A DNA stretch of 64,000 nt from Schmidtea polychroa (lineage: Eukaryota), in NCBI GenBank assembly GCA_044892525.1, contig CM097885.1, positions 17,548,001 through 17,612,000 on the forward strand, written 5' to 3'. This document shows, one piece after another, positions 2,644 to 62,330 of the stretch. How positions within the stretch are numbered: position 1 is the first letter of the stretch; every line of letters starts with the position of its first letter. Below the pieces are notes generated by a model. The model did not search any database and was not told the origin of the DNA. It saw only the letters and a list, made by a program, of their open reading frames with translations. Made by a program: the position numbers and the translations under genes.

Positions 2644-27411
<24,768 letters not shown>

Positions 27412-29237: not shown

Positions 29238-29626
29238 TGTGAGGTGTTTTCAGCTGAGAGTTAAATATTTCAATGGTTTATCAAAATAATTTTAAATTGT
29301 AAATAATTGACTATTAAAATAACTTTTAAATAATTTTTAAATTGGATTTTTTAAGTTGAAATTTTTAATTAAAAATTAAAATAGCTTTGTAAAAAAGAAG
29401 TTTTATTAATGAAAAATTTTTAAATAAATATGTTTTAAATATTGAAATATTTTGATAAATGGTTTTGAAAATATTTTGATAAATGGTTTTGAAAATATTT
29501 TATTCAACGCTGAAAATTTGTTTAAAATTAAATAATATGTGATATAAAAAATACTTGGAATTATGTCGTTCATTTTTGAACCGGATTTAAAAAATAATTT
29601 AGAAGATATGTTAGCAGCTTCTAATA
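29238..29626 (+). repeat. Gypsy 5' LTR
   Basis: TGTGAGGTGTTTTCAGCTGAGAG...GCAGCTTCTAATA, a direct repeat of 62342-62706 with an extra 24-bp internal tandem duplication. Confidence 0.92.
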
Positions 29627-29637
29627 TGTCGACCACG
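29627..29637 (+). promoter_or_regulatory. Primer-binding site, tRNA-Arg-like
   Basis: TGTCGACCACG follows the LTR directly. It is one mismatch from TGGCGACCACG, the complement of a tRNA-Arg 3' end (..CGTGGTCGCCA). Confidence 0.6.
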
Positions 29638-29640
29638 TCT

Positions 29641-30757
29641 ATGGATTTCTTCATAAGGAAGCTATTCTCAAATGATTATCATAAAGGAGATGATATTGAA
29701 ACATTCATTAAAGAATGCGATAGATATTTTAAAATGGTACAAATGCCTACTTCAAGACAAGAAGTGATGATCGAATTACTGATCGACAAGCAGATCACAG
29801 AGATATATACAAGAGTTTATCAAAATATCAAATGTTATAAGGAAAAATTGCGAAAGGCATTCGTCATAAAAACAAGTTTCGCAGAAGATTTACAATCTGC
29901 TATGTCTTATAGACAGACTAGTGAAGAGCCCGATAAATATTCTACTATCATAGACGAGTTAGTCGATAAAATATTGGGGCATGAGTTAAACAAGGAAAGT
30001 TTAACAGAATATCTGCTGGTACACTGTGCAGCCGAGAAGACTTTGAAACGAGAATTGTGTCTAAGTGCTACCAAAGGAACAACGGAAGTGAAGAAAAAAT
30101 TAAGAAGTTACATGAATCTCGTATGGTTGCAGAAGAGATCTACGCAATTAGAGAAAGAAGACCAGAACAGAATATAACAAGAAATTACAGAGACTCGGTT
30201 ACAAATCAAGCAAAAAATATTGTATCACCAAGATATAATAAAGAGCAGAGAGAGCAACGAGAAGAAAGACCGAAAAGAAATAAGAACGAATGCTGGACAT
30301 GTCACAAGGTAGGACATTTGAATAGAGATTGCATAACGAAGAAGGCAGTTACATGTTTTACATGTGGAAGACAAGGACATGTAAGAAGTCAGTGTCCACA
30401 GATGCAGAGAAAGGTAGTCGAATTTTATGCGTGTGGTACCCCGGGACACGTGAGAAGAGATTGTAAAAAAATAAGGTGTACGAGGTGTATCTTGGGAGGT
30501 CTTAAAGAAGTAGATTGTTACACAAATTTGGACAAAATGAGATATCGAAGAATCAATGAGAATTTTGGAAGACAACAAGAACGATACGAAGCAGAGAATG
30601 GTTATCAAGAAACGAGAAAGGAAACAAGACCGATGCAGACAAGAGATACGTAGCATTCATAGACGAACAAAGTGATGAAAGAATAAAAGATAAATACAGA
30701 GAATACCCAAATATCAAAGCCACGATAGAAGAGGAGATAGTGGGGGCAGTGTATTAA
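29641..30757 (+). pseudogene. gag: Gypsy gag (frameshifted)
   Basis: DDIETFIKECDRYF capsid-like region, a frameshift near 30090, then CX2CX4HX4C knuckles CWTCHKVGHLNRDC and CFTCGRQGHVRSQC plus two degenerate ones. Confidence 0.88.
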
Positions 30758-32042
30758 GCAGTAATGCTGACTCCCAAATTATTAATTATTATAATAAAAG
30801 TAAAATATCATGTATTATAGAAAAAGATGTGAAAGATACAAAGGTAACGGAAGATGAAAATAATGTAATAAGGAAAGTGAACAGATTCATAAAAAAGGAT
30901 TTTGCAGAAAAAGAGAAAATATACAAATACTCACCTTAGATAAATGGAAAAATGATTTTATAAGATATGATAAATGCAAGGCCGACCAAGTGTAACTATT
31001 AGAATACAAGACCAGAAGATGGAATGCTTGCTCGATACAGGATCTACAGTAAATATCATGAGTTGAAGCAAATTTGAGAAACTTAAAGATGTAAAATTAA
31101 CAACAAAGACTGATACATTGAGATGTGCAAATAATAGTGTTTTAGAAACGAAAGGTAAAGCAATATTAGAAATAGTAATAAATGGCAGGAAAAGAAGGGT
31201 AAAATTTACGATAGTACAATATATAAACGTTTTGTAGTTATATTGTTTGTTATTCATCATTTTTTCAAGGTTTTATAAATACGCACATATACACGCATCC
31301 CGATTGTCCCGCCACAATTTTTAACAGTGACTCTATCGGGCTCATCAAATTCCTTACAACATAGACATTCAAATACTAACTACATACCCATTACACGCAC
31401 AATAGTACATCACATAGATACTGTAAATCAATTAAGTATAGACAAACCCTCGGACATAATAACACGTAGCATTCATAGACGAACCAAGTGATGATAGAAT
31501 AAAAGATAAATACAGAGAATACCCAAATAATAACGCCCGTTAGAAGAGGAGATAGTCGGGGCAGTGTATTAAACAGTAATGCTGACTCCCAAATTATTAA
31601 TTATTATAATAAAAGTAAAATATCTTGTATTATAGAAAAAGATGTGAAAGATACAGAGGTAACGGAAGATGAAAATAATGTAAAAAGGAAAGTAAACAGA
31701 TTCATATAAAAGGATTTTGCAGAAAGAGAAAGAGAAAATATACAAATACTCACCTTAGATGAATGGAAAAATGATATTATTAGTTATGATAAAATACAAG
31801 GCCGACCAAGTGTAACTATTAGAATACAAGACCAGAAGATGGAATGCTTGCTCGATACAGGATCTACAGTAAATATCATGAGTTGAAGCAAATTTGAGAA
31901 ACTTAAAGATGTAAAATTAACAACAAAGACTGATACATTGAGATGTGCAAATAATAGTGTTTTAGAAACGAAAGGTAAAGCAATATTAGAAATAGTAATA
32001 AATGGCAGGAAAAGAAGGGTAAAATTTACGATAGTACAATAT
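30648..32042 (+). repeat. Direct duplication of the gag-end/protease segment (30648-31222 and 31464-32042) around a 241-bp unrelated spacer
   Basis: Near-identical ~575-bp copies that share the same TGA in the protease frame. Confidence 0.9.
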
Positions 32043-34483
32043 CTGACTCCAGAGGCAATTGGTGGTATAGAGTTGCAAATGGAACGATTTCAAAGAGCAA
32101 AAAATACTTTAAAGATAAATAATTCGATACTATTGAACATTGTAAAAAAGAATCAAAATGTTTTTATGGCTGATAAATGGGACATTGGCTGCACAAAGCT
32201 GTTGAAGCATAAGATAGAAACTCAAGGAAAACCGATAAATATTGAACCTTGGAGACAACCAGTGAACTTGGAAGGTAAAATAGATGAAGCGAAAAAAACT
32301 TATTGGAAAACAATAATATCAAAAAGTGTAATTCGCCATGGAACACTCCATTAATATGCGTCTCGAAGAAAGAAAAGCAAGATATCATATTGTCTTGATT
32401 TCAGGCAATTAAACCTAGTAACAGAGAGACAGGTGTTCCCTATGCCGAATATAGCAGAGATGTTAGATAAATTGGGTGGACCAAAGTATTTCAGTTCGAT
32501 AGATCTTGGAAATGCATATTATCAAGTAGAACTAGAAGATGAATCAAAGTTAAAAACGGCGTATTCAACCAAATCAGGGCAATACTGTTTTAACAGAATG
32601 CCATTTGGAATAGCAGCGGCACCAGGTATCTTTCAGGAACTGATGGGAAAAGTATTAATAGGTACTAGATATGCAGCAGTATACCTAGACGATATTTTGA
32701 TATTTACAGAAACGATCAATCACCACTAGGAAGTTTTAAATGAAGTGCTGTACAAAATTGAAAAGGCGGGTCTTAGGATAAACCCTGAAAAGTGCCAAAT
32801 CCTTAAAGCGGAAGTCAAAACCTTAGGTCACATAATAAACAAAGATGGAATACAGACGGACCCATCAAAGCTAGACGCGATTAGAAGAGCTATGCGGATT
32901 AAACAACAAAAAATTAATTTGGACTGACGGATGCAACATCGCATTCGAAAATATGAAAAATGTTTAAGTATTCTCACCTATTCTAGGGTTTCCAGATTTC
33001 GAAAGAGAATTTATTCTGGATACTGATGCGAGTTTTGACACGATTGGAGCAGTATTATCACAGAAAGATGACAACGGATGCGAAAAGGTTAAAGCATACG
33101 GTTCTCATGCAATGAGCAATCATGAAAAGGGATATAGCATAACAAGGAAAGAGTTGCTGGCAATCTATTATTTTTGTCAACACTTCAATCATTATTTTTA
33201 TGAAAAACGGTTCATTTTGAGAACGGACCATAAAGCTATCAATTTTATGTTATCCACAAAGAAACCAATAACAACTCAATTTCAGACATGGATTAACTAC
33301 CTCAGAGTCTGGATATTAAAATAGAGTATAGAAAAGGTACTGATCTTGCAAATGCAGATATGTTGTCAAGGAGTACACGTGGAACATGCAAACAATGTTT
33401 ATTGGCACACGAAGACGCGAAAGTGGAAAGAATGTAAACTCGGAGAATGAACACGATGGAAAAAGCTGAAGATAACAAGTGGCAAAAAGATAATAGAGAA
33501 ATAGAACAAATAAAAAAAGAAATAGCACAGGGTTCAAGTTGGAAATTTATACTGGTAGACAACGTGGCGAAAACGATAGAGGGTAAGATATGGATACCTA
33601 GAGAAAAAATACAAGAAATGATAAAGTGTATGCATATTTTGCTATCACACGCAGGAGCAGAAAAGGTGACAAAATATTTAGCGGACAATTACGATATGGG
33701 AGACATAAAAGAATCAGTTACAGAAACAATTGGACAATGCGAGGCATGTCAAAGAACGAAAGTAGTGACAACAAAGATGAAGGAAGAGACAATAAAGCTG
33801 ACAGTAGAGGAGCCATGGGAAAAAATGAACATTGATATATGTGTTCCATTACAGGAAACATTCAGAAAGAAAAGATTTATATTCGCAATGATTGATCAAT
33901 TTAGCAGATAAATCTATCTGACTGCTGTCGCTAAACAGGATGAAGAAACGGTGAAGGAAACAATACTACAAAAATGGATTCTTAGATTTGGAGCACCAAA
34001 GGAAATTCACACAGATAGTGGAAAAGTATTTGAATCTAAGACGATGAACGAGTTTACAAAATCAATGGGAATTACACTATGCTTTTCAAGTCCATATCAC
34101 CATAATACAAATGGTGTGATAGAACATCAATTCAGGACAATAAGAGACTATATAAATGCATCATTAAAAGAAAAAAGTAGAACAGATTGGGCAGAGATCA
34201 TACCAGAGATTGAATTTACCATGAATGCAACATTTCAGAAATCAATTGGACGAAGTCCCGCAGAAGTAATATTTGGAAGAAAAATAGCTCGAGAACAATT
34301 TCATAATAAAGCGACGATTTCACAAAAAGAAGATACAAAGAAACAACGCAGACAAAGAGATCATTCAATATTGGAGATGAGGTTCTGGTAAAAGTAGAAC
34401 CAAAAACGAAAGACAAGGAAATAAACGAAGGGCCATACAGAATAATGCAGAAGATCCACGATCCCCGATATCTGCTACAAGAC
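30975..34483 (+). pseudogene. pol: Gypsy pol (protease, RT, RNase H, integrase), disrupted
   Basis: Motifs CLLDTGSTVN (present twice), SSIDLGNAYYQ, RMPFG, YLDDIL, FILDTDAS, KELLAI, RTDHKA, H..LSH..CEAC, HTDSGKVF, SPYHHNTNGVIE and GPYRI, with many stops and frameshifts. The last codons resume at 62280. Confidence 0.93.
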
Positions 34484-39509
<5,026 letters not shown>

Positions 39510-40037
39510 TGACTTTGAGAATAACTGACAATATATAAAGAAATTAAAAAAATAGAATAAATTAAAAAGTAATAATTAGAATAATATAGAAAAAAAAAAT
39601 TTTAAAAAATAGGGTTTGAAAATCAAAATTGACACATTTATTGAAATATTTAAATAGCATATATAAGTAGTTATTGGAGGCTTTATTTAAAATATTTTCA
39701 AATATTTTATTAGGCTTTTAGAAGCTAATTATAGAAGCTGTAAAAAAATTTAAAAATTTTTAGTTTGTGTCATTTTGAAATTTTAAATGTAAAAATTTTA
39801 AAAGTTTTTAGTAAAACAATTCATTCTATTTACAACCAATGAGAATTAAGAGAAAGGAAATAAAAGAAAGATTGAAGGGTATTTTGGGGAAGAACATTGC
39901 TAAATTCCAGGAGATTGACAAGGACTATCGTATAGTCGAAATTTCTTTCATTAAATACATTATTTGCAGCAAAAGGCTTAAATTATCATTTTATTGTTTT
40001 AAATAATAAATGCTGCTACCAAGCAATCATCATTTTA

Positions 40038-40140
<103 letters not shown>

Positions 40141-40427
40141 AGAGAGAGATGTAGTTGCATGCTGACTGCAAACTACTGTTACAAATTATTTTCTCGTATA
40201 CCAAATCTAAAAATGAAAACATTACAAGTTTTCAAAAATAAAAATTTTTACCAATAATATCCTTTCTATGCTGAAACATTTTCGATAATTTTATATGAAA
40301 ATATAATGTTAAAACATAGAAAGAATTGTGAAAACTATAACGAGTTTTCAATAAAATATATACATTATAAAAGAATACAAATCAATAAAAACATTTTTTT
40401 TTTAAAAAGATATATTAATATATCACA

Positions 40428-43400
40428 TTAGTCCGATAAAATGACATCATCAATGTCAGTAACATCATCATTATTTATAATTCTTGGACTGTCCTGATCA
40501 TCGAAAGATGGGCTTTCGCCACCAAAAAGCGGTCCAATCTCTTCATGAGTAAATACCTGGCCAGCATCAGTTTCCTCAAATCCTAAATAATGTCCATATG
40601 CCAGACTGGTATTAGGCCCCACCCATAGTCTCTTGTCATCGTTGTTCGACAAGGCTATCTTCCTATTCTTGAAAGTAAAGAGCTGATGGTTTCTAGTACT
40701 TATTCTCGTTTGTGGCACCGTATATACTACGCTGTTGTTGTAGCAGTCTAAATAAGACTGGTGCCCTATCTCAGTATTACCAAGCTGAACTCCCTTAGCC
40801 CTAAGTGTTGCTGTATCTCCTAACAAACTATAACACTTAGGGCGCAAGAACACCCACTCCTTATAACCAAGCCCTTTACTTTCATCCTTAAATTTCCCTA
40901 TCACAGAATCCAAACTCTTTGAATACAAAGGATGAGCAGGATCATAATTACTAGTGTCTAGAAGATTATCACGAATCATTGCCGGCAAAAGAGTGTCAAG
41001 CTTACAGTGCTTTATCTCTAAGAAAAAGGAGTCGGTGTCGCCGGCAACGATATTTATATCACAGTTAAATTCATTTCTATATTTTGCCAATTCTATATAC
41101 TGTAACTGGTACATCCTCAGTTTAGACAGGTCTAGCACAGATTGGCCAATGTAGCTAGGCCTGTCTAAACATATAGAATCCTTATTTAGATGAGCTGCAA
41201 TCAGATCATCATCAATTCTGATAGATTTTCTGAATGTAGGTTTTGAGGCATATACAATCATCTTTTCAGCTGAATTGCATAGCCTCAAATTCATCCGTTT
41301 TTTAAGGTTTTCCACGGATTTCCCATACAGACTATTATTAAATAATTTATATAAATCTCTATGCAGCTCGCATGTAGAATTTGAGAGCAAATTAGTATTA
41401 GTTGATATGTAATCTTTAAAAATAGGTGCATGCTTAAATTTAATTGCCCTATGTACATTTTTAATTAAAGCCCCCAATTCAATATACAATTTGAGAAGTC
41501 GTCAATGAAGAACATGGTTCTTCTTCGGCCAATGCGTGAGCATCAGCTTCTCAACTTTTGAATCTGGCGGGCACATTTTTTCCGGAGCAATCGGAAAATC
41601 ATTCAAAAAATCATGCAAGCAATCAGGGATATCGATATCAACCTCCATAGTATAGCCATATGGAAGGTTATCAATATCAGCATTCATACATTCATACAAG
41701 ACAGAATCAAGGTCATCATACACCCATTCAAAATCACCATACGGAAGATTTTGGCTTAAGGCCCAACCATACAAGTTGTTTATATCTATATACAAGAGTT
41801 CTGTGTCTTCAGAACTTACAACATAATGTTTGTTAACAAATGTTAACCCACCCCGTATCCCTCCTTCATAGAAATTAAACATTTCCATGTCCTGTAAAAG
41901 TTCAATGGGTTCCTTTAATGTCATAAGCGCTGAGGCCCATGACATACCGGGAATACCATAAAAATTTAGAGGCTCAAGACCATTGTATGCAATGGCCTTT
42001 TCACGGAATTGTGTAAAATAATCTGCGAGGAGAAACACATCAAGTTTAAGGTATGTTAACATATAGTCTAACATATTGTTGCAATTTTGTTGAGTCCAAA
42101 TAACTTGGGCTAATTCATATTCATCATTAGACACAGAATCCCAAATAGGAGGCAATTCAAGAGTTGATTCCAGGACCTCAAGAGATGTAGCGAAGTCATA
42201 AGGGAAGATACCTTTTGCTCGAACAATTGCGCCATCAAAAACAGAAGAAGTTAAAGGCAGATCGGAAAGAGTCTTAACAGCTTTTGCAAGTGATGAATTA
42301 ACAAACTGCATGCTGTCAATAAAACGAACAGGCAGTTTGTTAATGTACGCGATGAGAGAGATAAATTTTTCCGTAGTGGTTGGAATAATATTCAATTCCC
42401 AAGAAGGAAAATTATTCAAACCATACTTCAAAATATGATGGAGGTCATACCCCCTAAAATTGTGAAATACAACAGGTAACTGTCTCTGAATTCTGCGAGA
42501 CACATTACATTTCCTACAGGCAGCACCAAGATACTTACCTGTGAAGTGACAATGGTCCCTAACTTTATCTCTAATAAATTTTTTACAAAGATAGCAGGTC
42601 CTGGAATTATAAAAGGCACGATCTTCAGCGAAAGACAAGGTTTGCATAGGCTTATTACCGTTAATTTCGTAATATGGTAGGACAATTGTGACAGCAATTT
42701 CCTCCACCTTATGCAAGAAAGACAACACGCAATCCTCACCAACAAACTCATAATAAAATCTAGTTTTGTTATAATTGTTAATTAGTAACATGCCTGCTGT
42801 TATTGGCATGTGTTTTTGATGGTGGGTGATATCCTCAGGTAAAATCGACTCAAAATCGGCATATATCACGAATGGCGGGGTTACTGTTTTTGCATAGTTT
42901 GAGAATATTAAATTTTTCTCTTTCGGTAATGTATATAAAGTAGAACCTATTTGATTCTTACGGCATAGGTCTACATGGATATCATATGCGCTCCTATGTC
43001 TGAAGCCATTAAGGCAATGTGGGCACCATTTGACGCGAATCCAAAGGTGACAGGAGCTATTTGGGTGTGAATTCATAAGTTTTTGAAGATCAAAAACTGC
43101 GGTGTAATGAAAATTATCACCGTCTTCTAATAATAATAAATATATGGGTTTACCACCTATAACCTTAGATCGGTGCATAATATCTAACTGGGGATGATGA
43201 GGGATATAATCTTCATTGTTGATAGGTTTCGCTGGTTTATTTCTATATATTAAAACGTTAATAGCTAAGTTCAGTTCACGGTTTTTGCGTTCGAATTTAG
43301 GTATGTTACTTAATCTCATCGGGCAATCACTAATGGGGTCAAAATTAATTTCATCCAAATAATTTTGGTAAGCACTAACTCGATGCTTATTTCTGCGTAT

Positions 43401-44426
43401 AACATCACGCTTTAAGAGGGCTAGAACACTATATATAAAACACATATCATCATCTGTGTTCTGGATATTGACAATTGCGTATTTAGACTTTAACGCTATC
43501 GGGGTGGGGATATAACTATGTCCAGCTAACCTATTCATAATCTTATACTTATTTATTATGAAGTCAATTTCTTTTATTTTAACAACCCGCCATCCGCTAC
43601 CTAAATATGTGAATTTTTCTATCTTATTATTTAATTTAGTGATGCCATTGATTAAAAAGTTTTCTGAAAAAACTTCGGCGTTATTGGAGAAAAAATTATC
43701 TCGGATTTCGCCATCTTTCTCAAATTGTATGAGAACCGTGAACTGAATTTTAACGGGCCCCATACCGTTCATTTCTGATACTAGTTTTTGAATAATTTTT
43801 GGTGTTATTGCTATCTGTACTAAGGCGTCTTTCTCCACGTCAAACCTTAGATTTTTTCTAGCCCCCTTAAAATCTATTTCTATTTCTGGCTCGTCGTCTA
43901 GATCGACTGAACCGCCTATTTGATTATTTAGTATATTATTTAGGATATTATTTAGGTTATTATCTATTTCATCACCACCATCATTAACTTTAACAATTTT
44001 AGATGGAACACAAGACCCAGGACTAACAGCAGGCCGTTTTTTATTTTTAATTAGATTATTATTCACATTTTTAATTAGATTATTATTCACATTTTTAATT
44101 ATATGTTCTGCGCTAATCGCATCATTATTTACAGTTTTAATTATATGTTCTGCGCTAATCGCATCATTATTTACAGTTTTATTTTTATATACAGTTTTAT
44201 TTACAGTTTTGATATGTTCTGTATTATTTAACTTATTAAAAAGTTTCTTTTTATTTAAAGTAAACTGATTTAGATGTTTACTATGTATATTATAAAAATC
44301 CTTATATTTTATAGGTTGGGAAGTCTGGCATAGTGGACATAAATAGTATTTGAGTCCATAGAATTTATGCCCATAGTATTTTTTCATGTTTTTGTGACAT
44401 ACTTTAGTATGCCCAGTCGAAGACAT
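40428..44426 (-). pseudogene. polB: Protein-primed family B DNA polymerase (one in-frame TGA at 41502-41504)
   Basis: ExoI YADFES, endonuclease-VII-like CYLC..RDHCHFTGKYLGAACRKCN, ExoII FHNFRGYD, KGIFPY, ExoIII YLKLDV, motif A YIDINNLYG, motif B KLFNNSLYGK and motif C GDTDS. The two track ORFs are in the same frame. Confidence 0.96.
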
Positions 44427-44642
44427 GCAATACCGAGGATATAATTGGCCTATTAATAAATTTATTTAATAATTATCTAAATATTGTTGTAATATAGAAT
44501 GTTTAATATCTTTATTAACAATTGTTAGTAGTTATTCAGTTTTTTTATTAGACAATAATTATAAAACTGAATAACTATTAACAATTATTAATAAAGGAAA
44601 TATTATTAGCAGTTAGATCAAAGACATGGAAATTTAAAGGTA

Positions 44643-44719
<77 letters not shown>

Positions 44720-44772
44720 AGAGATATGTAGTTGCATGCTGACTGCAAACTACTGGTAGAAATTATGGGTCA

Positions 44773-44898
<126 letters not shown>

Positions 44899-44951
44899 AG
44901 AGAGATGTAGTTGCATGCTGACTGCAAACTACTGGTAAAAATTATGGGTCA

Positions 44952-45023
<72 letters not shown>

Positions 45024-45096
45024 TCTAAACTTAAATTATAACTTTCTCAAGAATATTTCAAAATTTTCTTCTACATTTTCATCGTTTTAAATTTTC

Positions 45097-45305
45097 CTCA
45101 TCATTTCATATAAATTTTCATCATCATTTCATATAAATTTTCATCATCTGTTCATATAAATTTTCATCATCTGTTCATATAAATTTTCATCATCTGTTCA
45201 TATAAATTTTCTTCATATAAATTTTTCAAATAAAATTGTTCAGGATTTTTCAAATAAATTTTCATCATCATTTTCTAATAAATTTTCATCATCTGTTCAT
45301 ATAAA
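45097..45305. repeat. ~23-bp tandem repeat
   Basis: TTCATATAAATTTTCATCATCTG units, bracketed by a short inverted repeat (AAACTTAAATTATAACTTTCT ~45026 / AGAAAGTTATAATTTAAGTTT ~45353). Confidence 0.8.
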
Positions 45306-45411
45306 TTTAAATCGTCAATTACAAATTTACAGCATTTTTTAAAATAATTTAAAGAAAGTTATAATTTAAGTTTATAAATAATTTATAAATAATTATGATT
45401 AATAAAAAATA

Positions 45412-46095
45412 TTATTCATGAAAAAAAAAACTAACATTTAGACTCTGAATCAGAGTCTGTTTCGTCCTCAGTGAGGATATTTCCAAAAACCTTCCAATAA
45501 AAGTAGAGGCAAAATCTGCTTCCTCCCCAATAGCAGTGGGGGCATCAATTAGCATTGTTTCATCAATGCGTGCAGCATAAATTGGAGCATCATCCTCAGA
45601 GAGGGCATACGGAATAGGGGCATCATTCAAAACATTTGAAGCTTCTAAATCATTTTTAAAAATTACATATAAAAATAATAAAAACTTACGAGTATTTTCT
45701 ATCATCGCATGTTCGATGCAAAACTCATTGTCGATATGATTAGGAATCATTTGACTATGTCCTAAAAAAAGGTTTTTAATTTAATACAATAATAATAAAA
45801 AATTACTTGATAAATCATCATCATCCTCACTAATGACTATTGTATCGTCATTGTCGCTAATAATTATAGGATCTTCATCATCGCTCACCATTATAACGTC
45901 TAAATAATAATAATAATAATATTAATAAATAAAAATAAAATTACCATATGTACAATTTAAATTAAATCCATCTTCATTTTCAGTAACTTCGTACCACAAA
46001 TCATCTATAAAATATAAAAATAAATAAAATAATAATATTTTGCCATTGCTGCCAGCCATCATACATCTTAGAATATTATTTTCTTGTCCTTCCAT
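45412..46095 (-). CDS. Maverick accessory acidic protein with three tandem SIM-like motifs; 5 exons
   Basis: Exons 46095-46044, 46004-45945, 45899-45807, 45761-45690 and 45644-45412. Introns are 39 nt (GC-AG), then 45, 45 and 45 nt (GT-AG), all phase 1. Introns 2 and 3 contain in-frame stops. Exon 3 encodes DVIMVSDDEDPIIISDNDDTIVISEDDDD. The 3' end is uncertain. Confidence 0.72.
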
Positions 46096-46524
46096 TTTGT
46101 AAAAATTTTAAATTAATTGTGACGAATTTGGAAATTGCAAATGTTTATAAAGAGATTTAAATTTTCCTGTCCCAGCCAATAAGATTTCGGTATACACACA
46201 TAGAAACTTAAATATTTTACTCTGTTAGCCAATCACATTGCATCTACACGTGCCTTGTTAATCACACTGTTTCCATGTGACTGTCTTTATTAGTCAGTTC
46301 TTTGTTAACATGCACTGTGCATGCACGGAGCATGTGATGGCTTTATGATAAGTTAATTAAAAATAATTAATAAGTTAATAATAACAATAAAATTAAAGTC
46401 TTTCTTATTAAATAATAATAAAAGTCTTTCTTATTAAATAATAATAAAAGTCTTTCTTATTAAATAATAATAATAAAAGTCTTTCTTATTAAATAACAAC
46501 AACAAAGCATACACTAAACATTTA

Positions 46525-46857
46525 TTAAACATGAAACTTTTTGTACAACAACCACGCCAAACAGTGTTGACCACATGTTTAAGTCAAGGGATTTTGAAAC
46601 ATAGTTTTATTATACACAATAGGTTTCCCCATTGTTTGTAGTTTTGATATCAACAAAGCCGGGTAATAAAAACCCATAGGATCGAACACGATTATATTAC
46701 CAGGTTTCATATATATAGCTATCCAATGTTCTCCACCAAGATGAGACGATTGAGTATTGACGATTATTGCTTGATTATTGCTCAAATATGGAATTTTATC
46801 AAGAGGAAAAACTCCAACAAATTCATTTCCCAATATCTGTTTTCCAATTCTCAGTAC
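46525..46857 (-). pseudogene. Adenain-like cysteine protease (in-frame TAA at 46579-46581)
   Basis: FVGVFPLD, IVNT...GEHWIA, FDPMG, then FQNPLT*TCGQHCLAWL. The catalytic His, Asp, Gln and Cys are all present. The start codon is unresolved. Confidence 0.92.
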
Positions 46858-46928
46858 CTGAACTTAAATAAATCCAGAGTATAAAAAAGAACTTACTCCA
46901 TGACAACTTTTTGTGTTTCAATATACAT

Positions 46929-48149
46929 TTATACCAACACAGTTCTATTTGCAGTAATTTGAACTTCATTTTCAAATACTCCATATATTATAACATGTAC
47001 TGGTTCAGTAATAGCTTTTGCAAACTTTATATCCAGTCGTAAATTTCCATTTTGAGGTAATTGACTTTGATTTAAATCAAAATCAGGGGCTAAAACAAAT
47101 GTAAAAAATGGGTATTTGCTTTTAAAATCCTCTAGAGTTATTCCGCAATTCAAATTTTTATCTAAATAACCCAGATTTCTAACAATACTCTGCATATATG
47201 TCGCACAGTAATTGTCATTCTCGAAATCTTGAATATATGTTTCTCTATAATCAGTATTTTTCGACAAAGTCAATGATGTAACACCAAAGTTTTTGAAAAT
47301 TGAGCTGGACGCAGTATATGATCCATTATATTGTGCTTCACTTTGAAATGTTATCAGAATAAAATTAGGCATTCTTCTGTCACCAAATATTTGTTCTTTA
47401 TAGAATGATGAAGCACCTTTAGCAATAGCAAATTGTACAATTTCCTTTGTTTTTAATGGATAAATTGCATGTTTTGAATTAAGACCCAATTGATGACCTG
47501 CTAATACTGAGGGGTCTACTCGAACTCTTCTCACCAATAATTTTGCATCAACTAATTGACATATTGTTGTAGTAGTTGCACTAATAAGAGATAATGCAGA
47601 ATCAGACCTTTTCAGTCTAATATGTACATTAACTCCCGGTAGTAAATATTTCGGTTGATCCATAAAATCAAGTTGTAATGATGAGCACATGGTGAAAACC
47701 TTTGAGCCTTTTACCCAATTTTTTCTTTCATCATCACTGCCATAGCCCATAGGAGTAAGACATGAATTTTTAGTATCGGAATTGTAATTTAAAATAGTTT
47801 CTATTAATGCCTTGTGAATGAATGTATTATTTCCGCCCTCAATCTTGATATTATTAAATCCCAACACTGCATCTTTAAAAAGAGTATGAAACAGGAAATT
47901 GTTCGGTATTACATCTGCATTGGCATCCAAAACTTTTCTATCTTTATCTACAACCTTAATCTGAACAGTCAATAAAGTATCGTTCAAATCTAAATATTCG
48001 GTTTGTGAACCATTAATATAAAACTCGATATCATTTCTACTATCGGTAATTGAATTCATAGGAAAAACTTCCTCAAATGCCCCAAATTCTATTACAGCCT
48101 GGGGCGACGGTCTATCAAATATACATAATTCAGATTTACCACAAATCAT
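46929..48149 (-). CDS. Major capsid protein (double jelly-roll, PY/hexon-like)
   Basis: Intact 406-aa ORF with Polinton MCP motifs KSEL.IF..P, IEFYINGS..EYLDL..TLL, QPKYLLPGV...IRLKR and GNLRLDIKFA. Confidence 0.92.
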   Translation of the reverse strand: MICGKSELCIFDRPSPQAVIEFGAFEEVFPMNSITDSRNDIEFYINGSQTEYLDLNDTLLTVQIKVVDKDRKVLDANADVIPNNFLFHTLFKDAVLGFNNIKIEGGNNTFIHKALIETILNYNSDTKNSCLTPMGYGSDDERKNWVKGSKVFTMCSSLQLDFMDQPKYLLPGVNVHIRLKRSDSALSLISATTTTICQLVDAKLLVRRVRVDPSVLAGHQLGLNSKHAIYPLKTKEIVQFAIAKGASSFYKEQIFGDRRMPNFILITFQSEAQYNGSYTASSSIFKNFGVTSLTLSKNTDYRETYIQDFENDNYCATYMQSIVRNLGYLDKNLNCGITLEDFKSKYPFFTFVLAPDFDLNQSQLPQNGNLRLDIKFAKAITEPVHVIIYGVFENEVQITANRTVLV

Positions 48150-49408
48150 TTTGCAAATATAGTTCCATGTCCTTTCATTCGTTTGTTTATACGTGATATT
48201 CCATGTCTTTTACGTTTTGGAGCTGGAGCTGGAGCTGGAGGTTTTTGAAACATACCTGCAACCCCAGGTAAAACTTTCCCTAATTCAGCTAAAGCATTTG
48301 TTTTTAGAGATGGTAATATTTTCTGTTCATTCATAATAACATCTTTTGCAGTTTTCATACCAAAACTACCAATACGTTTAAGAATAGGCAGGGCAAAACA
48401 ACCAATAGTTCTCAACCATCCTGATCCGTACTGTTTACCTTTTGGAAAGTTTATAAGTTTTCCACTATCATCACGAATATTTATTTCTATATTGTTTATA
48501 CATGAACTTGCTATTGGTAAATACATGGGATTATCGATATTTATATTGACAACTTCATCATGTTCATATTTTCCAATCCATACCGATTTCAAAAGAGGAA
48601 CACTGGAATCACCAACAATTATGGGTTCGATAATGTTAGTATATATGAACATTTGTTGATGATGTTCTAGTATTCTTGGTTTGCGTATACCAGTCGATTT
48701 TTCTCGATATTTTTGCCTATCTAATCCAAGTGAATTTGCCAAATTTTTATCAAATGTAACTTCGCAAATATCCTCATTCAAACTGAAGGTAAACATCAAA
48801 TCTTTCACAATTTCCAAATTTTTAAATATGTGTGAACAATTGAACTTTAAATATTTAAGTAAATCATCAAGTTTATCAAAATATAATTCATCAGCAAAGG
48901 TAAATGATTCTTCAACTTCATCATTATACGACACAGATATTTTGATTTCTTCTTTCATTACACTGTTTGCTTCAAATAGATTAAAACGTAATAAATACTC
49001 GGTCTCTGTAACAATATTTTTCAACTTATTGCAACCCATTCGTTTGGCATCTTCAATAGTTTCGAATGTTATTGTAAATGGTTTAAAATCTCAACTGAAA
49101 TTTAATCCATCCTTGTAAAACATATAGCAATGCGAATCTAATATTTGGTTCGGAATATGATATGTTTTATCATAATTACTAATAAAAAAGATACCGCTAC
49201 ATGTTTTCACAATATTCCTTCTGAAATCAATCGTACAATGACTATAAAATGGGAATGTGTTGTACACGAATGTAAAATCTTGCAGTGCAACTTCCCAGTC
49301 ACCATTTAAAGAAATCGGATTCTGGAGATTGACCATAAATTTACTGGCTTGATTGTCTGGATGAATTAATGGGCAACTATTGCTCGGTAAAATAGTATAA
49401 AAATTCAC
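48146..49408 (-). pseudogene. Minor capsid (penton) protein, in-frame TGA at 49091-49093, running in frame into a basic core-protein-like tail
   Basis: N-terminal FYTILPSNS...PDN..SKF...L..PISLNGDWEVAL and C-terminal FIYTNIIEP.IVGD..VPLL...PMYLP....INNIEINIRDDSG, followed directly by QYGSGWLRTIG..ALPILKRIG. The two track ORFs are in the same frame. Confidence 0.85.
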
Positions 49409-50037
49409 TTTACTAGGTCTTTTGCTGATATCCATGACGGGTTTTGATAACCATGCCATTTGACATAGTATTGTTTATCCTTACCGACCTTTTTAGTTTT
49501 CAATATTTTTTGAATTCTAAATACTTTTGGGGGAGTAATGACTTGTAATTCCTGCTCATAAAATTTCCCTTGTACAATATTATTGTCATTGTCTTTGATG
49601 ACATACATTACAGGATTCTGTTTAGTATTTATTTTTGAAATTACAAAGACTTCATCACTCCAATTTGTATCAAAATTTTTAATAAATGGTGATGCACTAA
49701 TTTTACTAATTCTAACATGGTCACCGACTTTATATTTAGGTTTTGCAATTTATACAGATTTCTTAGAAGTCAATGATGTTTTTGATGTAATATCAACAGG
49801 TCTCAATCCATTCAGTCCTCGATGTGATGAATGATTATAACTTGTTATTATTTTCGGTAAAGCATTTACCCATTTTTTATTACCTTGATGCACGAACAAT
49901 TTCTTTAATCTATCTCTCAATGTTCGATTAAATCTTTCAACATGGGCAGCTTTGTATTGAGAATGTACCGAGTAGTGATTTATTTTCAGTTTATCGAGGA
50001 TTTGCTTAACTTTGCTATTGTAGAATTCTTTACCTAA

Positions 50038-50117
<80 letters not shown>

Positions 50118-50505
50118 CTAAATCTGTTTGCAAGTTATTAGGATGTCCATCTTTAAATAAAATATTAATTGCCTTGGAAATTTCTTCTGCAGATTTTGCC
50201 TTGACTGGTATTGCTCGTGCAAACCTGCTGTATACATTAATACATGTTAAAATATATTTATTTCCATTGTTAATTTTCGAATAAGGTATCATCTCCATCA
50301 AATCCATTTGCCATAAATTGTCAATATTAAATGTTTTATATGCTCTTGTTGGAAATCTTTTCCGCATTGGTTTGTTCAAACTGTACGCAAGCTGATCTGA
50401 TAACCACTTCTGGGTTTCTTTTTTCGAATTCGGAACTCTTTACTTTAATTTTGCCACTCCACCGAAACCGGCTTCGTCTTCTGGGTTCGTCCAAATCTTC
50501 TCCAT
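49405..50505 (-). pseudogene. Retroviral-like (rve) integrase with C-terminal chromodomain; two in-frame TAA and one 84-nt intron
   Basis: One frame from ATG 50505: MEKIWTNPEDEAGFGGVAKLK*..WLSDQLAYSLNKP, WQMDL, LQTDLG[intron 50117-50034]KEFYN, VERFNRTL, YNHSSH, SV*IAKPKYKVGDHVRI and YYVKWHGY..PSWI. Stops are at 50440-50442 and 49750-49752. Confidence 0.93.
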
Positions 50506-50566
50506 TACAACAAGAAGATTTAAAATTAAATTTAATGTCGGGAAATGAAGGATTAGCACCCATTGT

Positions 50567-51094
50567 TTATGACTGTGTAACTCCACCTAATAATGATAAT
50601 GCCAGAGGTATCAATGCACCAATAAATCCACCTTGTTGTTTATATATAATTTTCCTCATTTGCTTACGATTTTTATTATTTACTAAAGATAACAATGGTT
50701 TCCTATGTTTGCTCAATAAATGCCTTTTTGATTTACTGATTTGATTTTTTCCTTTGACTACTTTAAGTATAATATTGAGTAAATCATCGACAACGAAATT
50801 TGGGAATGATTGCAATATATTCATTCTTTTCATACTCGGAGCCTTTAACAATGCATTAAAAAATGGAAAACTTCGATAATTTTTAACTACTTTTTTACTG
50901 GTTTTACTGGTTTTACGGGTTTTACGTTTAGGTTTAGGATTTTTCGAAATAAGATTCATTGCAGAGAAATTTTCAGTTACAAGTTTTTTAGATGGTGTAT
51001 AACTAGTTGTTGGTGGAACTTTTGGAACTTTAATACTCTTTCTAATACTTTTTCTTAATTTCCTAATATTTTTCACCCTTGCTTTTAGAAACAT
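50567..51094 (-). CDS. Basic core-like protein with QQGG|F motif and amphipathic C-terminus
   Basis: Very K/R-rich 175 aa ending KQQGGFIGALIPLALSLLGG. This type of ORF typically lies between ATPase and integrase in Polintons. Confidence 0.78.
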   Translation of the reverse strand: MFLKARVKNIRKLRKSIRKSIKVPKVPPTTSYTPSKKLVTENFSAMNLISKNPKPKRKTRKTSKTSKKVVKNYRSFPFFNALLKAPSMKRMNILQSFPNFVVDDLLNIILKVVKGKNQISKSKRHLLSKHRKPLLSLVNNKNRKQMRKIIYKQQGGFIGALIPLALSLLGGVTQS

Positions 51095-51112
51095 TATTAT
51101 TCATAGAGGTTT

Positions 51113-51739
51113 TCAACTTTGTTTATAAACCATGGCACCTTTTGGGTTGAAAATATCGGTTTTTACTCGTAAATCACCGGGACATTGTTGCGTGAAATCA
51201 AGAAATATATATCCATGAGGTATTTTTGTAGCATCTTGAAATGCACTGATAAGAAAATTACGATTGTTAGGGTATGCTTGACGTGCAAGAAAATCAATCA
51301 CTGTTGCATCTCTAGGATTCTTGAAAATAACTAAATATTGTACATTTAAATTACGTGTTCGATGTGCACCACCTTGATGAAATAGATTTTGTGTTATGAA
51401 AATAACTGTTACACCGACATGTCTGCTGATCTTTGTAAATAAATTATTAAAATCTTTTTCTTTATTAGCTTCTTGATACAGATCATCGATAATAATGACA
51501 TCACCTTTCTTTAATCGGCTGGACCAGTTTTTATCGAATCCCTTTACTATTTTCATGTTTTTTAATTTACAGAAACTTGATTGAGTTAATCCATGTTCTT
51601 CATCAGCACCCCTATGCCAATAAATCCTGTTGAATTTTGATTTGAATAAATTTGATTTTAGTAATTTACAAACAAATAATGTTTTTCCACTACCACTCGG
51701 ACCAACGATTTGGTATACTGCATCATTTCTTAATTCCAT
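51113..51739 (-). CDS. A32/FtsK-HerA-family DNA packaging ATPase
   Basis: Walker A GPSGSGKT, Walker B IIIDD, SRH, IFITQNLF and RTRNLNVQYLVIFKNPRD. Confidence 0.95.
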   Translation of the reverse strand: MELRNDAVYQIVGPSGSGKTLFVCKLLKSNLFKSKFNRIYWHRGADEEHGLTQSSFCKLKNMKIVKGFDKNWSSRLKKGDVIIIDDLYQEANKEKDFNNLFTKISRHVGVTVIFITQNLFHQGGAHRTRNLNVQYLVIFKNPRDATVIDFLARQAYPNNRNFLISAFQDATKIPHGYIFLDFTQQCPGDLRVKTDIFNPKGAMVYKQS

Positions 51740-51804
51740 TTCAAAAATTTTTTAAGTGTGTATTTGTTTATATTCAATGATTTAATGAACTCGTGCTCAA
51801 TTTG

Positions 51805-51812
51805 TATATAAA
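51805..51812 (+). promoter_or_regulatory. TATA box upstream of the TBP-like gene
   Basis: TATATAAA ~30 bp before ATG 51839, in the 100-bp divergent gap shared with the ATPase. The AT-rich background weakens this. Confidence 0.45.
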
Positions 51813-51838
51813 GACTAATTTTCATAAATGATTTAATA

Positions 51839-52276
51839 ATGTTAGCAAATATAAATTATCGAGGAAATTTTGATGTATCGAATATGAGGTTCCCACCCGG
51901 GAAACCCCAGCAAATTATCGATAGAAGCGGGAAATATCCGATAATATTTTTCAAGACTGGTAAATGTAGAATCATGGGATGTAAGAAACCCTTGGATATT
52001 AATAAATTACAATATCGAATAAATAATATTAAAATTCAATCAATTACCGTTACTATGGATATGGGACATAGTATCAATCTATATAACATGTCGAAAAAAT
52101 GTGATTGTATGTTTGAACCGGAATTGTTTCCGGCACTAAGACTATTAAAATATAACCCTATATGTGTCAACGTGTTTGCTAGTGGAAAGGTTGTCATGTT
52201 GGGGTTGAGAAATTTGGAGTATAGAAAATTTGTTGACAATGTTCGAAATGAGATAATTTCATTGGTCGATTTCTAA
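51839..52276 (+). CDS. TATA-binding-protein-like protein (145 aa)
   Basis: Two TBP repeats: IIFFKTGKCRIMGCK and IKIQSITVTMDMGHSINL...FEPELFPALRL...VNVFASGKVVMLG. Compare TBP ALIFSSGKMVCTGAK and FKIQNMV...YEPELFPGLIYR...LIFVSGKVVLTG. Confidence 0.88.
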   Translation: MLANINYRGNFDVSNMRFPPGKPQQIIDRSGKYPIIFFKTGKCRIMGCKKPLDINKLQYRINNIKIQSITVTMDMGHSINLYNMSKKCDCMFEPELFPALRLLKYNPICVNVFASGKVVMLGLRNLEYRKFVDNVRNEIISLVDF

Positions 52277-52350
52277 TTGGTTAATTTCTAATTGGTTATT
52301 GATTGATTTAAACAAACGGTTTTTTGTTTAGGATTCATTTATTCAACAAA

Positions 52351-52762
52351 ATGTACAAAATTCCAAGCGCAGCAAATATAATGAAAGATATTGACGACTA
52401 CGGTAAATTTTATATTTATTATTTTCATTTTTATATTTGTTATTTTAGAAAAATATTTAGAAGTGATGTTGAATCGGATAAAATATTATTACCCGCAAAT
52501 TGCAGAAATTATCAAGGATCGCGAACCTGAGATCATTCCAGATCTGATATTCTATGAGACTCAAATTCGAATCATGGAGGTATTCCATCAATTCCTATGG
52601 GATCTGAAGATCAATAGGACAATGAAACAAATGGAGACGGAATACCAATGCATCATCGGATGCTCATGTTGTGCCGATCGATATCGGCGATATGTTGAAT
52701 GGGAGTTAGTGAAAACTCTGAGAAGGTTTCACTACTCCCGGATTGTAGATATAGGATATTAA
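52351..52762 (+). CDS. Maverick hypothetical protein (121 aa, 2 exons, C..GCSCC cluster)
   Basis: Exons 52351-52402 and 52449-52762 are joined in frame across a 46-nt GT-AG intron. AATAAA follows the stop. Confidence 0.72.
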
Positions 52763-52838
52763 TAAATGTATTTTTTCTTTCTATCGTGTTTTTATATTTG
52801 AAATAGTAATAATATAAATAGTAATAGTAATAATATAA

Positions 52839-52873
<35 letters not shown>

Positions 52874-53001
52874 TATAATAATAATAATAATAATAATATA
52901 AATAATAATAATAATAATATAAATAATAATATGACACATAAATAATAATAAAACATTAATAATAATATGTCACATCAATAATATGAACATAAATGCAGCA
53001 T

Positions 53002-53080
53002 TAATGCAAATGACATGCAAATTTAAACAAAGACATGCTATAATCTGATTGGTTGATAGGCATGAGTCAAAGGTATAAAA
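53002..53080 (+). promoter_or_regulatory. Pol II-like promoter: two ATGCAAAT, AACAAAG, inverted CCAAT, TGAGTCA, TATAAAA
   Basis: The motifs occur in this order just upstream of ATG 53115. The ATGCAAATGACATGCAAATTTAA(A)CAAAGA block is repeated at ~53596-53624 before the next gene. Confidence 0.6.
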
Positions 53081-53114
53081 ACCCTGTAACATTTCAATTT
53101 AATCATTATTCACT

Positions 53115-53535
53115 ATGACCAAGAAAATTTCATGCACCGAAAAACCTATATAAATGGTACAACCAGTTCAAATGTTCCACAACTACAAAATGTATTTTTT
53201 GAAAGAAGAAATCAATATGAAATTGGTTGCACCGATCAAGCTAATTCCAACTAAATTTCAATTCTTATCCGGCACGCTTTCAATGATTGATGTCAAAACT
53301 ATTGATGATGTTTTTAAACGGTTAGATTCGAATCTATCATGTAATCAACATGCATGGTTCAACAATAGATATGCAAGATTTTATGATCTTTTATGATTTT
53401 TTTGATGAAATCAGTTTCAAAGAAAATGAAAATTGGTATATAACAATTGCAATCCAGGGATATAAAGTTGATAATAATGATGTATATTCTCCTATTTGGA
53501 AAATTATGTCTGCTAGACTTTCACAAATATTTTAA
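53115..53535 (+). pseudogene. Maverick hypothetical protein (in-frame TAA at 53151-53153; 10-bp duplication frameshift at ~53378-53397)
   Basis: Removing one TTTTATGATC/T copy joins track ORFs 53154-53396 and 53350-53535 (..YARFYDFFDEISFKENENWYITIAIQGYK..). Confidence 0.68.
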
Positions 53536-53661
53536 TGTTATATTTAATAAATGTTTTAGTCATATTTGTTTTTCTCTTTATTAATTGCAACATAAATGCA
53601 AATGACATGCAAATTTAACAAAGAAAATCTATAAACAAACTTAAAATATAGCTTTAAAGTG

Positions 53662-54038
53662 ATGAAAATGACTGCAGAAAAAGGTTAACATGATTAATTA
53701 ATTACCGAATTATTTATTATTTAGAATTATTAATCAACTTTTTGTTGGAAAAGTTAGCAGAAATAGCTGGTGTGAAAATTGAGGACATATTATCTGTTAC
53801 AAATGCATTAAATATCGGCTGGGTAGTTGAGAGTCAAGATTCAGGATTTGATGATCAGGAAGAAGAAACTCAAGAAACTGATACTCAAGAAATTGATGAG
53901 GAAATATATGAACCTATAGATGAACCTATAGAGGAACCTAAAGATGAACCTAAAGATAATATTACGAATGATTGTATTGATCATGTCGTTGAAAATATAA
54001 TGAAATGTGGAGATGACGACTGCGAATGTGTTAATTAA
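53662..54038 (+). CDS. Maverick acidic hypothetical protein (2 exons)
   Basis: Exon 53662-53683, a 41-nt GT-AG intron, then exon 53725-54038 give MKMTAEKELLINFLLEKLAEIAG... with an E/D-rich middle and Cys-rich end. Confidence 0.7.
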
Positions 54039-54107
54039 TAAATCTTAGTGTTTGTAAATTTATTTAAAATTTTATTTAAAAATCAAACAAAATAACTATA
54101 TTAATTT

Positions 54108-54619
54108 TTATTTAAAAAATCGCGATAAAGCATACAAAATAGCAACACCTGTTGCAAGTTTTATATAGTTTTTAAATTTCATTTTCTGTTCATCTATTTC
54201 CTTCGCATTTCTGGCGAGTTGATTCAGAGTTGATCCGCCATTGGCTTCAATCCATGGTTGAAACTTTGACTTGATTATCTAGAAAATATATATTAATAAA
54301 ATATAGATTATAAAAGTATTACTTCTTGAGACCACTGATAATAATGTTCAGAGTCCCATAAACTTCTTTCGATTATGATCTTCATATAAGCGAACCCTAC
54401 TAGTATTCGGGTCCACTTCATCTCATCATCGCATAGACAGTTAAAAATCCTATGAAAATAGAATTTTTTCGTTTCGAGGCAATCGCAATTGAGCACATCC
54501 TCATAATTAATGTGATTTCCTTCTATAATCTTTTCGGTCCGATCGACCAGGAAACTGAGGCTTTCCATAATCTTCTTGTTAATAAGTTCGCTTAAAAGAT
54601 TTTCCATAAAATGAGACAT
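54108..54619 (-). CDS. Bcl-2-family-like protein (155 aa, 2 exons, tail-anchored)
   Basis: Exons 54619-54323 and 54278-54108 with a 44-nt GT-AG intron. BH1-like FHRIFNCLCDDEMKWTRILVGFAY, BH2-like FQPWIEANGG and tail LATGVAILYALSRFFK. Confidence 0.82.
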
Positions 54620-54724
54620 TTCTACAATAATTTAAAATATGATGTTTTATTTATACTAATACCGTATGATTTTGATTGGTTGATAGACTATAAATGTAAA
54701 AGAAAGGTTTTGATTTGATACACC

Positions 54725-55225
54725 ATGAAAACTATATTCATATTGCTAATTATTATAACGAGTGTGTGCTCACACAATACAACAATAACAGTGAAGTCTT
54801 TTAATAAATCAATATGTGTTTGTCCGAATACCGCCAAGTTGATGGATATTTTATATATCCTCGATAAACCAAATTGGTCAAAGCATCCAGGAAAAAGAAT
54901 ATCTCAAAGATTGGAGAATTTAGAAAACAGTTATGAACTATCATTTGCATATATACAAAATATAAAAATTAAATTGATTGATCATATTGAAGTTTTCAAT
55001 AACTCTATTGTTGAAAATAAGAAGAATATGAAAATTATTGATAAGAAGCATGATTATTTGTTAAAAAAGATTGAATTATTATTAAGAGAAATTAAAACAA
55101 TCAAAGGATCAATAGAATATCTGAAAATCAATTCAACGTTACCAATTTCAAACAATAATGCTGCGAATAGTAGTACATCAATATTAGGTTTACCTTTGTT
55201 AGTTTTACATTATTTTTTTGTTTAA
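54725..55225 (+). CDS. Predicted secreted/surface coiled-coil glycoprotein with GPI-like C-terminus
   Basis: Signal-like MKTIFILLIIITSVCS, several NxS/T sites, a heptad-like central region, then a small-residue stretch and a hydrophobic end (NSSTSILGLPLLVLHYFFV). Confidence 0.7.
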   Translation: MKTIFILLIIITSVCSHNTTITVKSFNKSICVCPNTAKLMDILYILDKPNWSKHPGKRISQRLENLENSYELSFAYIQNIKIKLIDHIEVFNNSIVENKKNMKIIDKKHDYLLKKIELLLREIKTIKGSIEYLKINSTLPISNNNAANSSTSILGLPLLVLHYFFV

Positions 55226-55366
55226 ATAAATGTATGTTTTGTTGATTTGTTTAATAATACCCTTGTGAGTTGTTGAGCGTGAGCAATACCCTTTTGAGCA
55301 TTACCCATTGGGGGAGAAAATATTTTGTCGGATAAACTCGGGGCAGTACCCTTGCGAGCAATACCC

Positions 55367-62273
<6,907 letters not shown>

Positions 62274-62330
62274 CAAGACCAAAGTTGGAAAATGCTTCAA
62301 AGAAATGTTGAAAAGATGAAGAAATTTCTT

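Follow-up and report, generated by a model that had tools for sequence, protein, structure and literature searches.

A candidate intron with a microsatellite interior at a duplicated AG|GT site in a planarian Maverick integrase gene

Few cases of intron gain have been observed directly, and PMC3488318 treats the origin of new intron sequence as an open question. Among the closest described systems are the neointrons of Daphnia, for which the account in PMC4202315 gives 33 gains with repeats of 4-12 bp between the intron end and the exon, together with a high AT content. On the side of the host elements, Maverick expansions are reported from Dugesia genomes in the text of 10.64898/2025.12.11.693146, and the available portions of PMC12220804 and 10.1101/2023.08.22.554363 mention group I introns only. 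In the literature apart from its supplements, we found no Maverick integrase described as having an intron, and no described intron that consists of a microsatellite alone and has a duplication at its edges. The locus described here lies in a 64-kb stretch of Schmidtea polychroa DNA (the window) and consists of a short ATT-repeat insert in the integrase gene of a Maverick. It resembles a break-repair neointron, and, judged from its sequence, the chance that it is a spliced intron is about even.

The element that carries the insert is a Maverick/Polinton, with terminal inverted repeats, AG-type ends, a 6-bp duplication and genes for an integrase, an ATPase and a pPolB (Table 1). The Pfam-type profile matches of Pox_A32 and DNA_pol_B_2 are above the curated cut-off and that of rve is below it (E 4e-06), and the ORF at 46929-48209 has no Pfam match. 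A profile made from 28 relatives of the integrase matches solved retroviral integrase cores, and in this alignment the Asp of QTD falls on the Asp of the TD(N/x) motif; we take this residue to be the second of the DDE triad. The window copy of the Maverick is dead, having two stops in the integrase (50440-50442 and 49750-49752), one in the next gene downstream and one in the polymerase.

Table 1. Positions in the window of the Maverick, its main genes and the parts of the integrase insert.
Feature	Position	Strand	Remarks
Maverick/Polinton, 27.8 kb	34484..62273		AGTAG ends, long terminal inverted repeats rich in (ATT)n
6-bp target-site duplication of the Maverick	34478-34483 and 62274-62279		
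Retroviral-type integrase gene (rve core + C-terminal chromodomain)	49405..50505	minus	broken by in-frame stops
Packaging ATPase gene (Pox_A32-like)	51113..51751	minus	upstream neighbour of the integrase
Protein-primed DNA polymerase B (pPolB) gene	40428..44465	minus	one in-frame stop
First TTTAGGTA copy	50115..50122	minus	holds candidate donor TAG|GTATTA, 5/9 consensus matches, element average
Perfect (ATT)n run	50038..50116	minus	26.3 units, 100% matches
Second TTTAGGTA copy	50031..50038	minus	holds candidate acceptor TTTTAG|G
Candidate 84-nt phase-1 GT-AG intron	50034..50117	minus	predicted from sequence
Asp codon of QTD	50122..50124	minus	aligned with the TD motif of solved integrase cores

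The surroundings of the integrase are themselves rich in repeats and in smaller elements. The terminal inverted repeats of the Maverick (34484-39190 and 55412-62273) extend over several kilobases, are only 80-90% alike, and are full of (ATT)n runs and of tandem units of 87-92 nt. The right one contains a 2.3-kb inverted-repeat element (55980-58298) with a RING-finger ORF (57376-57921) that is absent from the left; (TAT)n runs stand at both of its ends in inverted orientation, whereas there are just four units at the empty site, as though the tracts belonged to its termini. Short inverted-repeat elements of one family, with a AAGTGATGATTTCTTGGTAGCAG-like terminus beside a long (TAT)n run are found at 16856, 18096, 19050-19218, 39191-40037 and 8935, which is true of all five places seen. 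A 68-unit (TTA)n run (18843-19053) flanked by a GTTA 4-mer stands at the left end of a palindromic element and is a smaller case of a duplication with a tract. On both flanks of the polymerase gene a 55-nt hairpin-like unit follows the (TAT)n runs (40139-40189 and 44718-45023), being tandemly duplicated upstream. The long polymerase ORF starts without an ATG, with a T-rich AG there (44440-44465), and the ORF at 41505-44465 has a weak match to Endonuclease_7 (HNH-type; E 4e-04, codons 621-655). A broken Gypsy-type LTR retrotransposon (29548-34391), with zinc knuckle, reverse transcriptase, RNase H and integrase, ends just to the left of the Maverick.

The sequence-only reading that first pointed to the site described an 8-mer on both sides of a nearly pure ATT run, and we confirm this: the two TTTAGGTA copies lie on the minus strand at the two ends of the insert, separated by 76 nt of filler. 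The insert is placed two codons past the Asp of QTD, with AG|GT inside a conserved Gly codon. The same reading held that removal of 84 nt restores the conserved motif, and in agreement with it the bounds have the form GT…AG and the homologues lack the span, whose only AG is the one at its end. It was also right that about 26 in-frame Ile would result without splicing; by translation, the unspliced frame stays open and after QTDLG reads 26 Ile, Leu and Gly.

The direct repeat of 8 bp at both ends of the insert is beyond what chance provides. When random flanks from the coding core of the element were set around the tract, a G/C-containing flanking repeat of at least 8 bases was obtained in 47 of 20,000 null trials (0.24%). 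The tract as such is of a commonplace type, since the 64-kb window holds 30 perfect runs of at least 10 units that total 2,388 bases. When the tracts of the window are merged into 26, a clean, non-tract duplication of more than 4 bases is confined to the one in the integrase; the other duplications beside these tracts are one 4-mer and three matches made of tract letters.

Relatives of the element have the site without the insert. The motif D-x-G-x-E-F is uninterrupted in 119 of the 120 homologous proteins listed, which are the best 120 of 287, and the site is uninterrupted in all 80 of the JGI metagenome loci (80 of 113 matches), a set for which one of the two search patterns favoured the uninterrupted form. 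Five of these 80 loci have the same nine bases as the downstream copy in the window. Of 150 representatives obtained by clustering at 50%, 141 match the uninterrupted motif, and among the other nine only the protein P0200 has an Ile run. The GTDB contigs contained three distant relatives, two of them uninterrupted and one without a match to the motif. The exact 26-base flank had no matching stretch in the JGI metagenomes, no relative was found in viral contigs with either the protein P0076 (see below) or an alignment as the query, and none of the 48 matches of an 18-base degenerate motif in viral contigs encodes an integrase. Because the outgroups are uninterrupted, one copy of the 8-mer is old coding sequence and the event was an insertion with duplication. 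By comparison with these relatives the insert is derived, and was gained together with a target-site duplication of the AG|GT site.

Other origins of the tract were considered and set aside. Birth by pure slippage does not fit an empty site that has no repeat seed, and slippage gives no 8-bp duplication. Telomerase-type addition would have added TTAGGG, the telomere unit of flatworms, whereas the unit found here is ATT. The inverted-repeat elements capped by (TAT)n in the window might have left an excision footprint, but they show no 8-bp duplications.

The closest sister copies are informative about the age of the insert. In a set of 348 proteins, the nearest three to extend as far as the site (97, 97 and 85% identical) all depart from the family sequence there, P0122 (85%) ends before the site, and relatives from 80% down are uninterrupted. 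Three protein searches, including those with the middle part and the C-terminal half as queries, gave no uninterrupted protein of more than about 80% identity; from the C-terminus they gave only one 67-residue fragment of the family, and no family-level C-terminal half starting at the site. The first of the close proteins, P0121 (97%), reads QTDLG, then INIIIFIIELKGFTMIL, and then has a stop, its tail beginning INIIIFII…L. Six Ile in the eight codons after a GT were seen at one of 2,378 GT sites in the flanking host DNA (the first 28 kb of the window), and since an Ile run is that rare after such sites, the tail of P0121 appears to begin as a worn ATT tract. From the ATT-like part it passes into non-repeat sequence, which has no match in the window, and in the ESM Atlas the protein falls only in generic integrase clusters. 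If the stop of P0121 were the TAG of an acceptor, an insert of 56 nt would follow, a length not divisible by three, by amino-acid arithmetic only; the first stop after GT is TAG at only 177 of 1,071 host-DNA sites, so this arithmetic does not discriminate.

In the second close protein, P0076 (97%), the sequence passes directly from the same Gly codon to the final 14 residues, which is a deletion and not an intron. This in-frame deletion has a 3-base microhomology at its joint, and P0076 is possibly a non-autonomous derivative. In the third, P0200 (85%), IIII stands directly before GK, as it does before none of the 250 other GK dipeptides in the six frames of the window; this protein, which resembles a chimera produced by automated gene modelling and is missing five conserved residues after GK, is given little weight. 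Neither P0121 nor P0076 has the four private residue changes of the window copy in the N-terminal half, the stop included, and both may be mosaics, since they are genes called on short contigs in which a repeat family is collapsed, the tail of P0121 being available as amino acids only. Because the closest sisters are disturbed at the same codon, and P0121 and P0076 are free of the private changes, the insert seems to be older than the death of the window copy, which is suggestive and not proof, and it is probably common to a lineage. The possibility, raised together with the original observation, that the tract is unique to this dead copy seems not to hold, P0121, P0076 and P0200 all being disturbed there.

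The family to which these copies belong is abundant, 15,786 contigs of run X1 matching 1 kb of the element; no RNA source is listed among 23 runs. In a comparison of contigs from four runs that covers 50096-51100 except for 31 letters at the repeat (50096-50126) and 10 loose contig ends there, more than 99% of the depth in every run is without the upstream integrase stop of the window copy. Variants were classed in two conserved coding stretches, at 25 sites among 40 of 204, with 7 spacer sites and 8 sites further upstream excluded. For these 25 sites, from 40 of 204 variants, all 15 segregating coding sites are at third positions and 13 of them are synonymous (2 of 4 in the integrase), and 9 of the 10 sites private to the window copy change a residue. 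By this pattern the Maverick family looks to be under selection. Should most copies have an insert at this codon, they would have to splice it. On the tract side, 39 letters of a contig of run X14 are unplaced, as would be the case for a contig ending in the repeat, but also for an uninterrupted or a different form; neither this contig nor the fall of contig depth near the junction was counted as evidence.

Short ATT seeds evidently grow to 20-40 units in this DNA, as can be read from tracts that are paired in the two terminal repeats of the Maverick. At 38367 and 58229 the partners differ as 4 versus 23 units, and at 35095 and 61561 about 11 units are paired with several runs of 16-21 units. 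A/T trinucleotide repeats are common in planarian promoters, according to the text of PMC10558129, which also reports repression of Polintons by the piRNA pathway. The simplest link between P0121 and the window copy would be a seed-bearing AT-rich insert that became expanded in the window copy.

We therefore put forward, at what we judge to be an even chance, a short lineage-specific intron that was born at AG|GT and whose ATT-rich interior expanded in the window copy; it is a candidate, and its splicing is predicted. An ancestor of the Maverick lineage would have taken up a short AT-rich insertion at the AG|GT site of the integrase, where the filling in of a staggered break would leave the 8-bp duplication, with staggered-break repair or a retroelement tail as the presumed source. 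The duplication alone could have supplied the GT at the left edge and the AG at the right edge. The host spliceosome may then remove the span, because it is short and U-rich and has a good acceptor, and the lineage would have kept a working integrase and multiplied. From the sister copies and the tract expansion elsewhere in the same element, we infer that an unstable interior with ATT seeds expanded in the window copy to a pure run, giving 84 nt overall. This copy, as its private decay indicates, later died by point mutation. The poly-Ile frame would be a by-product of a length divisible by three, with no function, and there is no support for a role in regulation other than the simple requirement for splicing. 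The sequence-only reading had offered two origins, namely intron birth by AG|GT duplication with microsatellite fill-in, and an older intron overwritten by repeat expansion. The duplication at AG|GT is retained from it, now as a derived gain by comparison with the metagenome loci and homologous proteins above, and of the two origins P0121 agrees better with the second, in which expansion overwrote an older AT-rich intron, than with pure-repeat fill-in.

The splice signals of the candidate are mixed. By a simple T-richness score, and not by a trained model, the acceptor is among the best 13 of 560 AG sites. By a crude U1 consensus, a score at least as high as that of the candidate donor is reached by 208 of the 509 GT sites of the element, and the duplicated downstream donor, with 6 of 9 matches, is above the 5 of 9 of the candidate. 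The usable branch point for which the original observation recommended a check did not appear in canonical form: the 84-nt span has no YTRAY or CTRAY motif, only the minimal TnAY, 25 times. Species with short introns may use degenerate branch sites. The short introns of Schmidtea mediterranea peak at 45-85 nt, and the authors of PMC13594981 propose intron-defined splicing in its text; both the 84 nt of the candidate and the hypothetical 56 nt of P0121 are within this peak.

The weak donor and the missing branch motif are what one would expect if the insert were instead an unspliced scar that knocked out the integrase in a sub-lineage, which was copied in trans by intact helpers or persists among many dead copies. 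In such a case the GT and AG would be a side effect of the AGGT duplication, and the unstable tract would have seeded both the deletion in P0076 and the junction in P0121. The window copy is indeed dead, with stops in three genes, and throughout the window junctions are marked by (ATT)n runs. However, the interrupted sister proteins match the family majority in the N-terminal half, with no sign of decay, and the three protein searches gave no uninterrupted close copy, although a majority allele should assemble most easily. We consider the scar a possible but rather unlikely explanation.

A second explanation is that a non-LTR retroelement with a (TAA)n or (ATT)n tail was inserted independently at a preferred target, in copies that were dead on arrival, the window insert being a tail-only insertion and that of P0121 having the same orientation but less truncation. 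Target-primed reverse transcription leaves just such an 8-bp duplication around a 3′ microsatellite, 5′-truncated RTE copies with microsatellite tails and duplications are described in PMC2887409 and PMC6007223, and the passage of P0121 from ATT-like to non-repeat sequence would fit such a copy. However, there is no element body at the site, where the filler is pure repeat, and the non-repeat tail of P0121 matches nothing in the window; such a duplication is seen at only one of the 26 tracts, no (ATT)n-tailed retroelement was identified, and the Ile run of P0200 is on the other edge. We consider repeated retroelement insertion improbable. That the tract is an assembly artefact, or a translated poly-Ile loop that the integrase tolerates, is very improbable: long (ATT)n runs are hard to assemble and the 84-nt span keeps the frame open, but an artefact would make neither a clean 8-bp duplication nor, in a record independent of this one, a tail rich in Ile at this codon, the spacing of D-x-G-x-E-F is kept in 119 of the 120 homologues listed (best 120 of 287), and 28 mostly hydrophobic residues two positions from the catalytic Asp would hardly be tolerated.

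The intron reading has a stronger form, which we hold to be less likely than not, in which a whole, recently active, high-copy animal Maverick lineage gained a spliceosomal intron two codons from the catalytic Asp with a hypervariable (ATT)n interior and no canonical branch site. If this were true, thousands of copies would form a natural series of intron birth, in which the length of the repeat would decide between integrase (spliced), a truncated protein (retained, length not divisible by three) and poly-Ile (retained, length divisible by three). A gain in a high-copy element provides many replicates of one event, and the outgroups still show the empty site. It would also test whether nearly pure (AUU)n RNA can be spliced, and the integrase would join the evidence against animal Mavericks being intronless throughout. 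Should the insert be no more than a scar in dead copies, it would be an ordinary mutation in a genome rich in (ATT)n.

Set beside the known systems, the insert shares with the staggered-break neointrons of Daphnia pulex, as characterised in PMC4202315 and PMC3488318, a short AT-rich sequence, repeats at its ends (8 bp here), GT…AG bounds and absence from relatives. Unlike them, it lies in the integrase of a transposon or provirus, has a pure microsatellite interior and is a candidate whose splicing is predicted from DNA. The insertion at AG|GT in a conserved Gly codon is in keeping with the proto-splice-site model, (A/C)AG|Gt, as outlined in PMC3488318, whereas the site here is TAG|GT and a duplication with foreign filler takes the place of the plain tandem exon duplication considered in that source. 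With the 5′-truncated RTE retrotransposons as PMC2887409 and PMC6007223 present them, it has in common a trinucleotide run flanked by a target-site duplication; unlike those copies, it has no element body, and no source element was identified. The introners in dinoflagellate eupolintoviral proviruses, as reported in PMC12166617, are likewise spliceosomal introns gained by insertion in Polinton-like elements. They form families of similar mobile sequences at many sites in that account, whereas the present insert occupies one site and has no unique body and no terminal repeats; no introner-type family at many sites was seen in the window, where one of 26 tracts has a long duplication. The element itself is like the vertebrate Mavericks of PMC8097293 in its terminal inverted repeats, 6-bp duplication, integrase, ATPase and pPolB. 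The intact vertebrate Mavericks are intronless by the description in that source, whereas the planarian lineage may have an intron in the core of its integrase.
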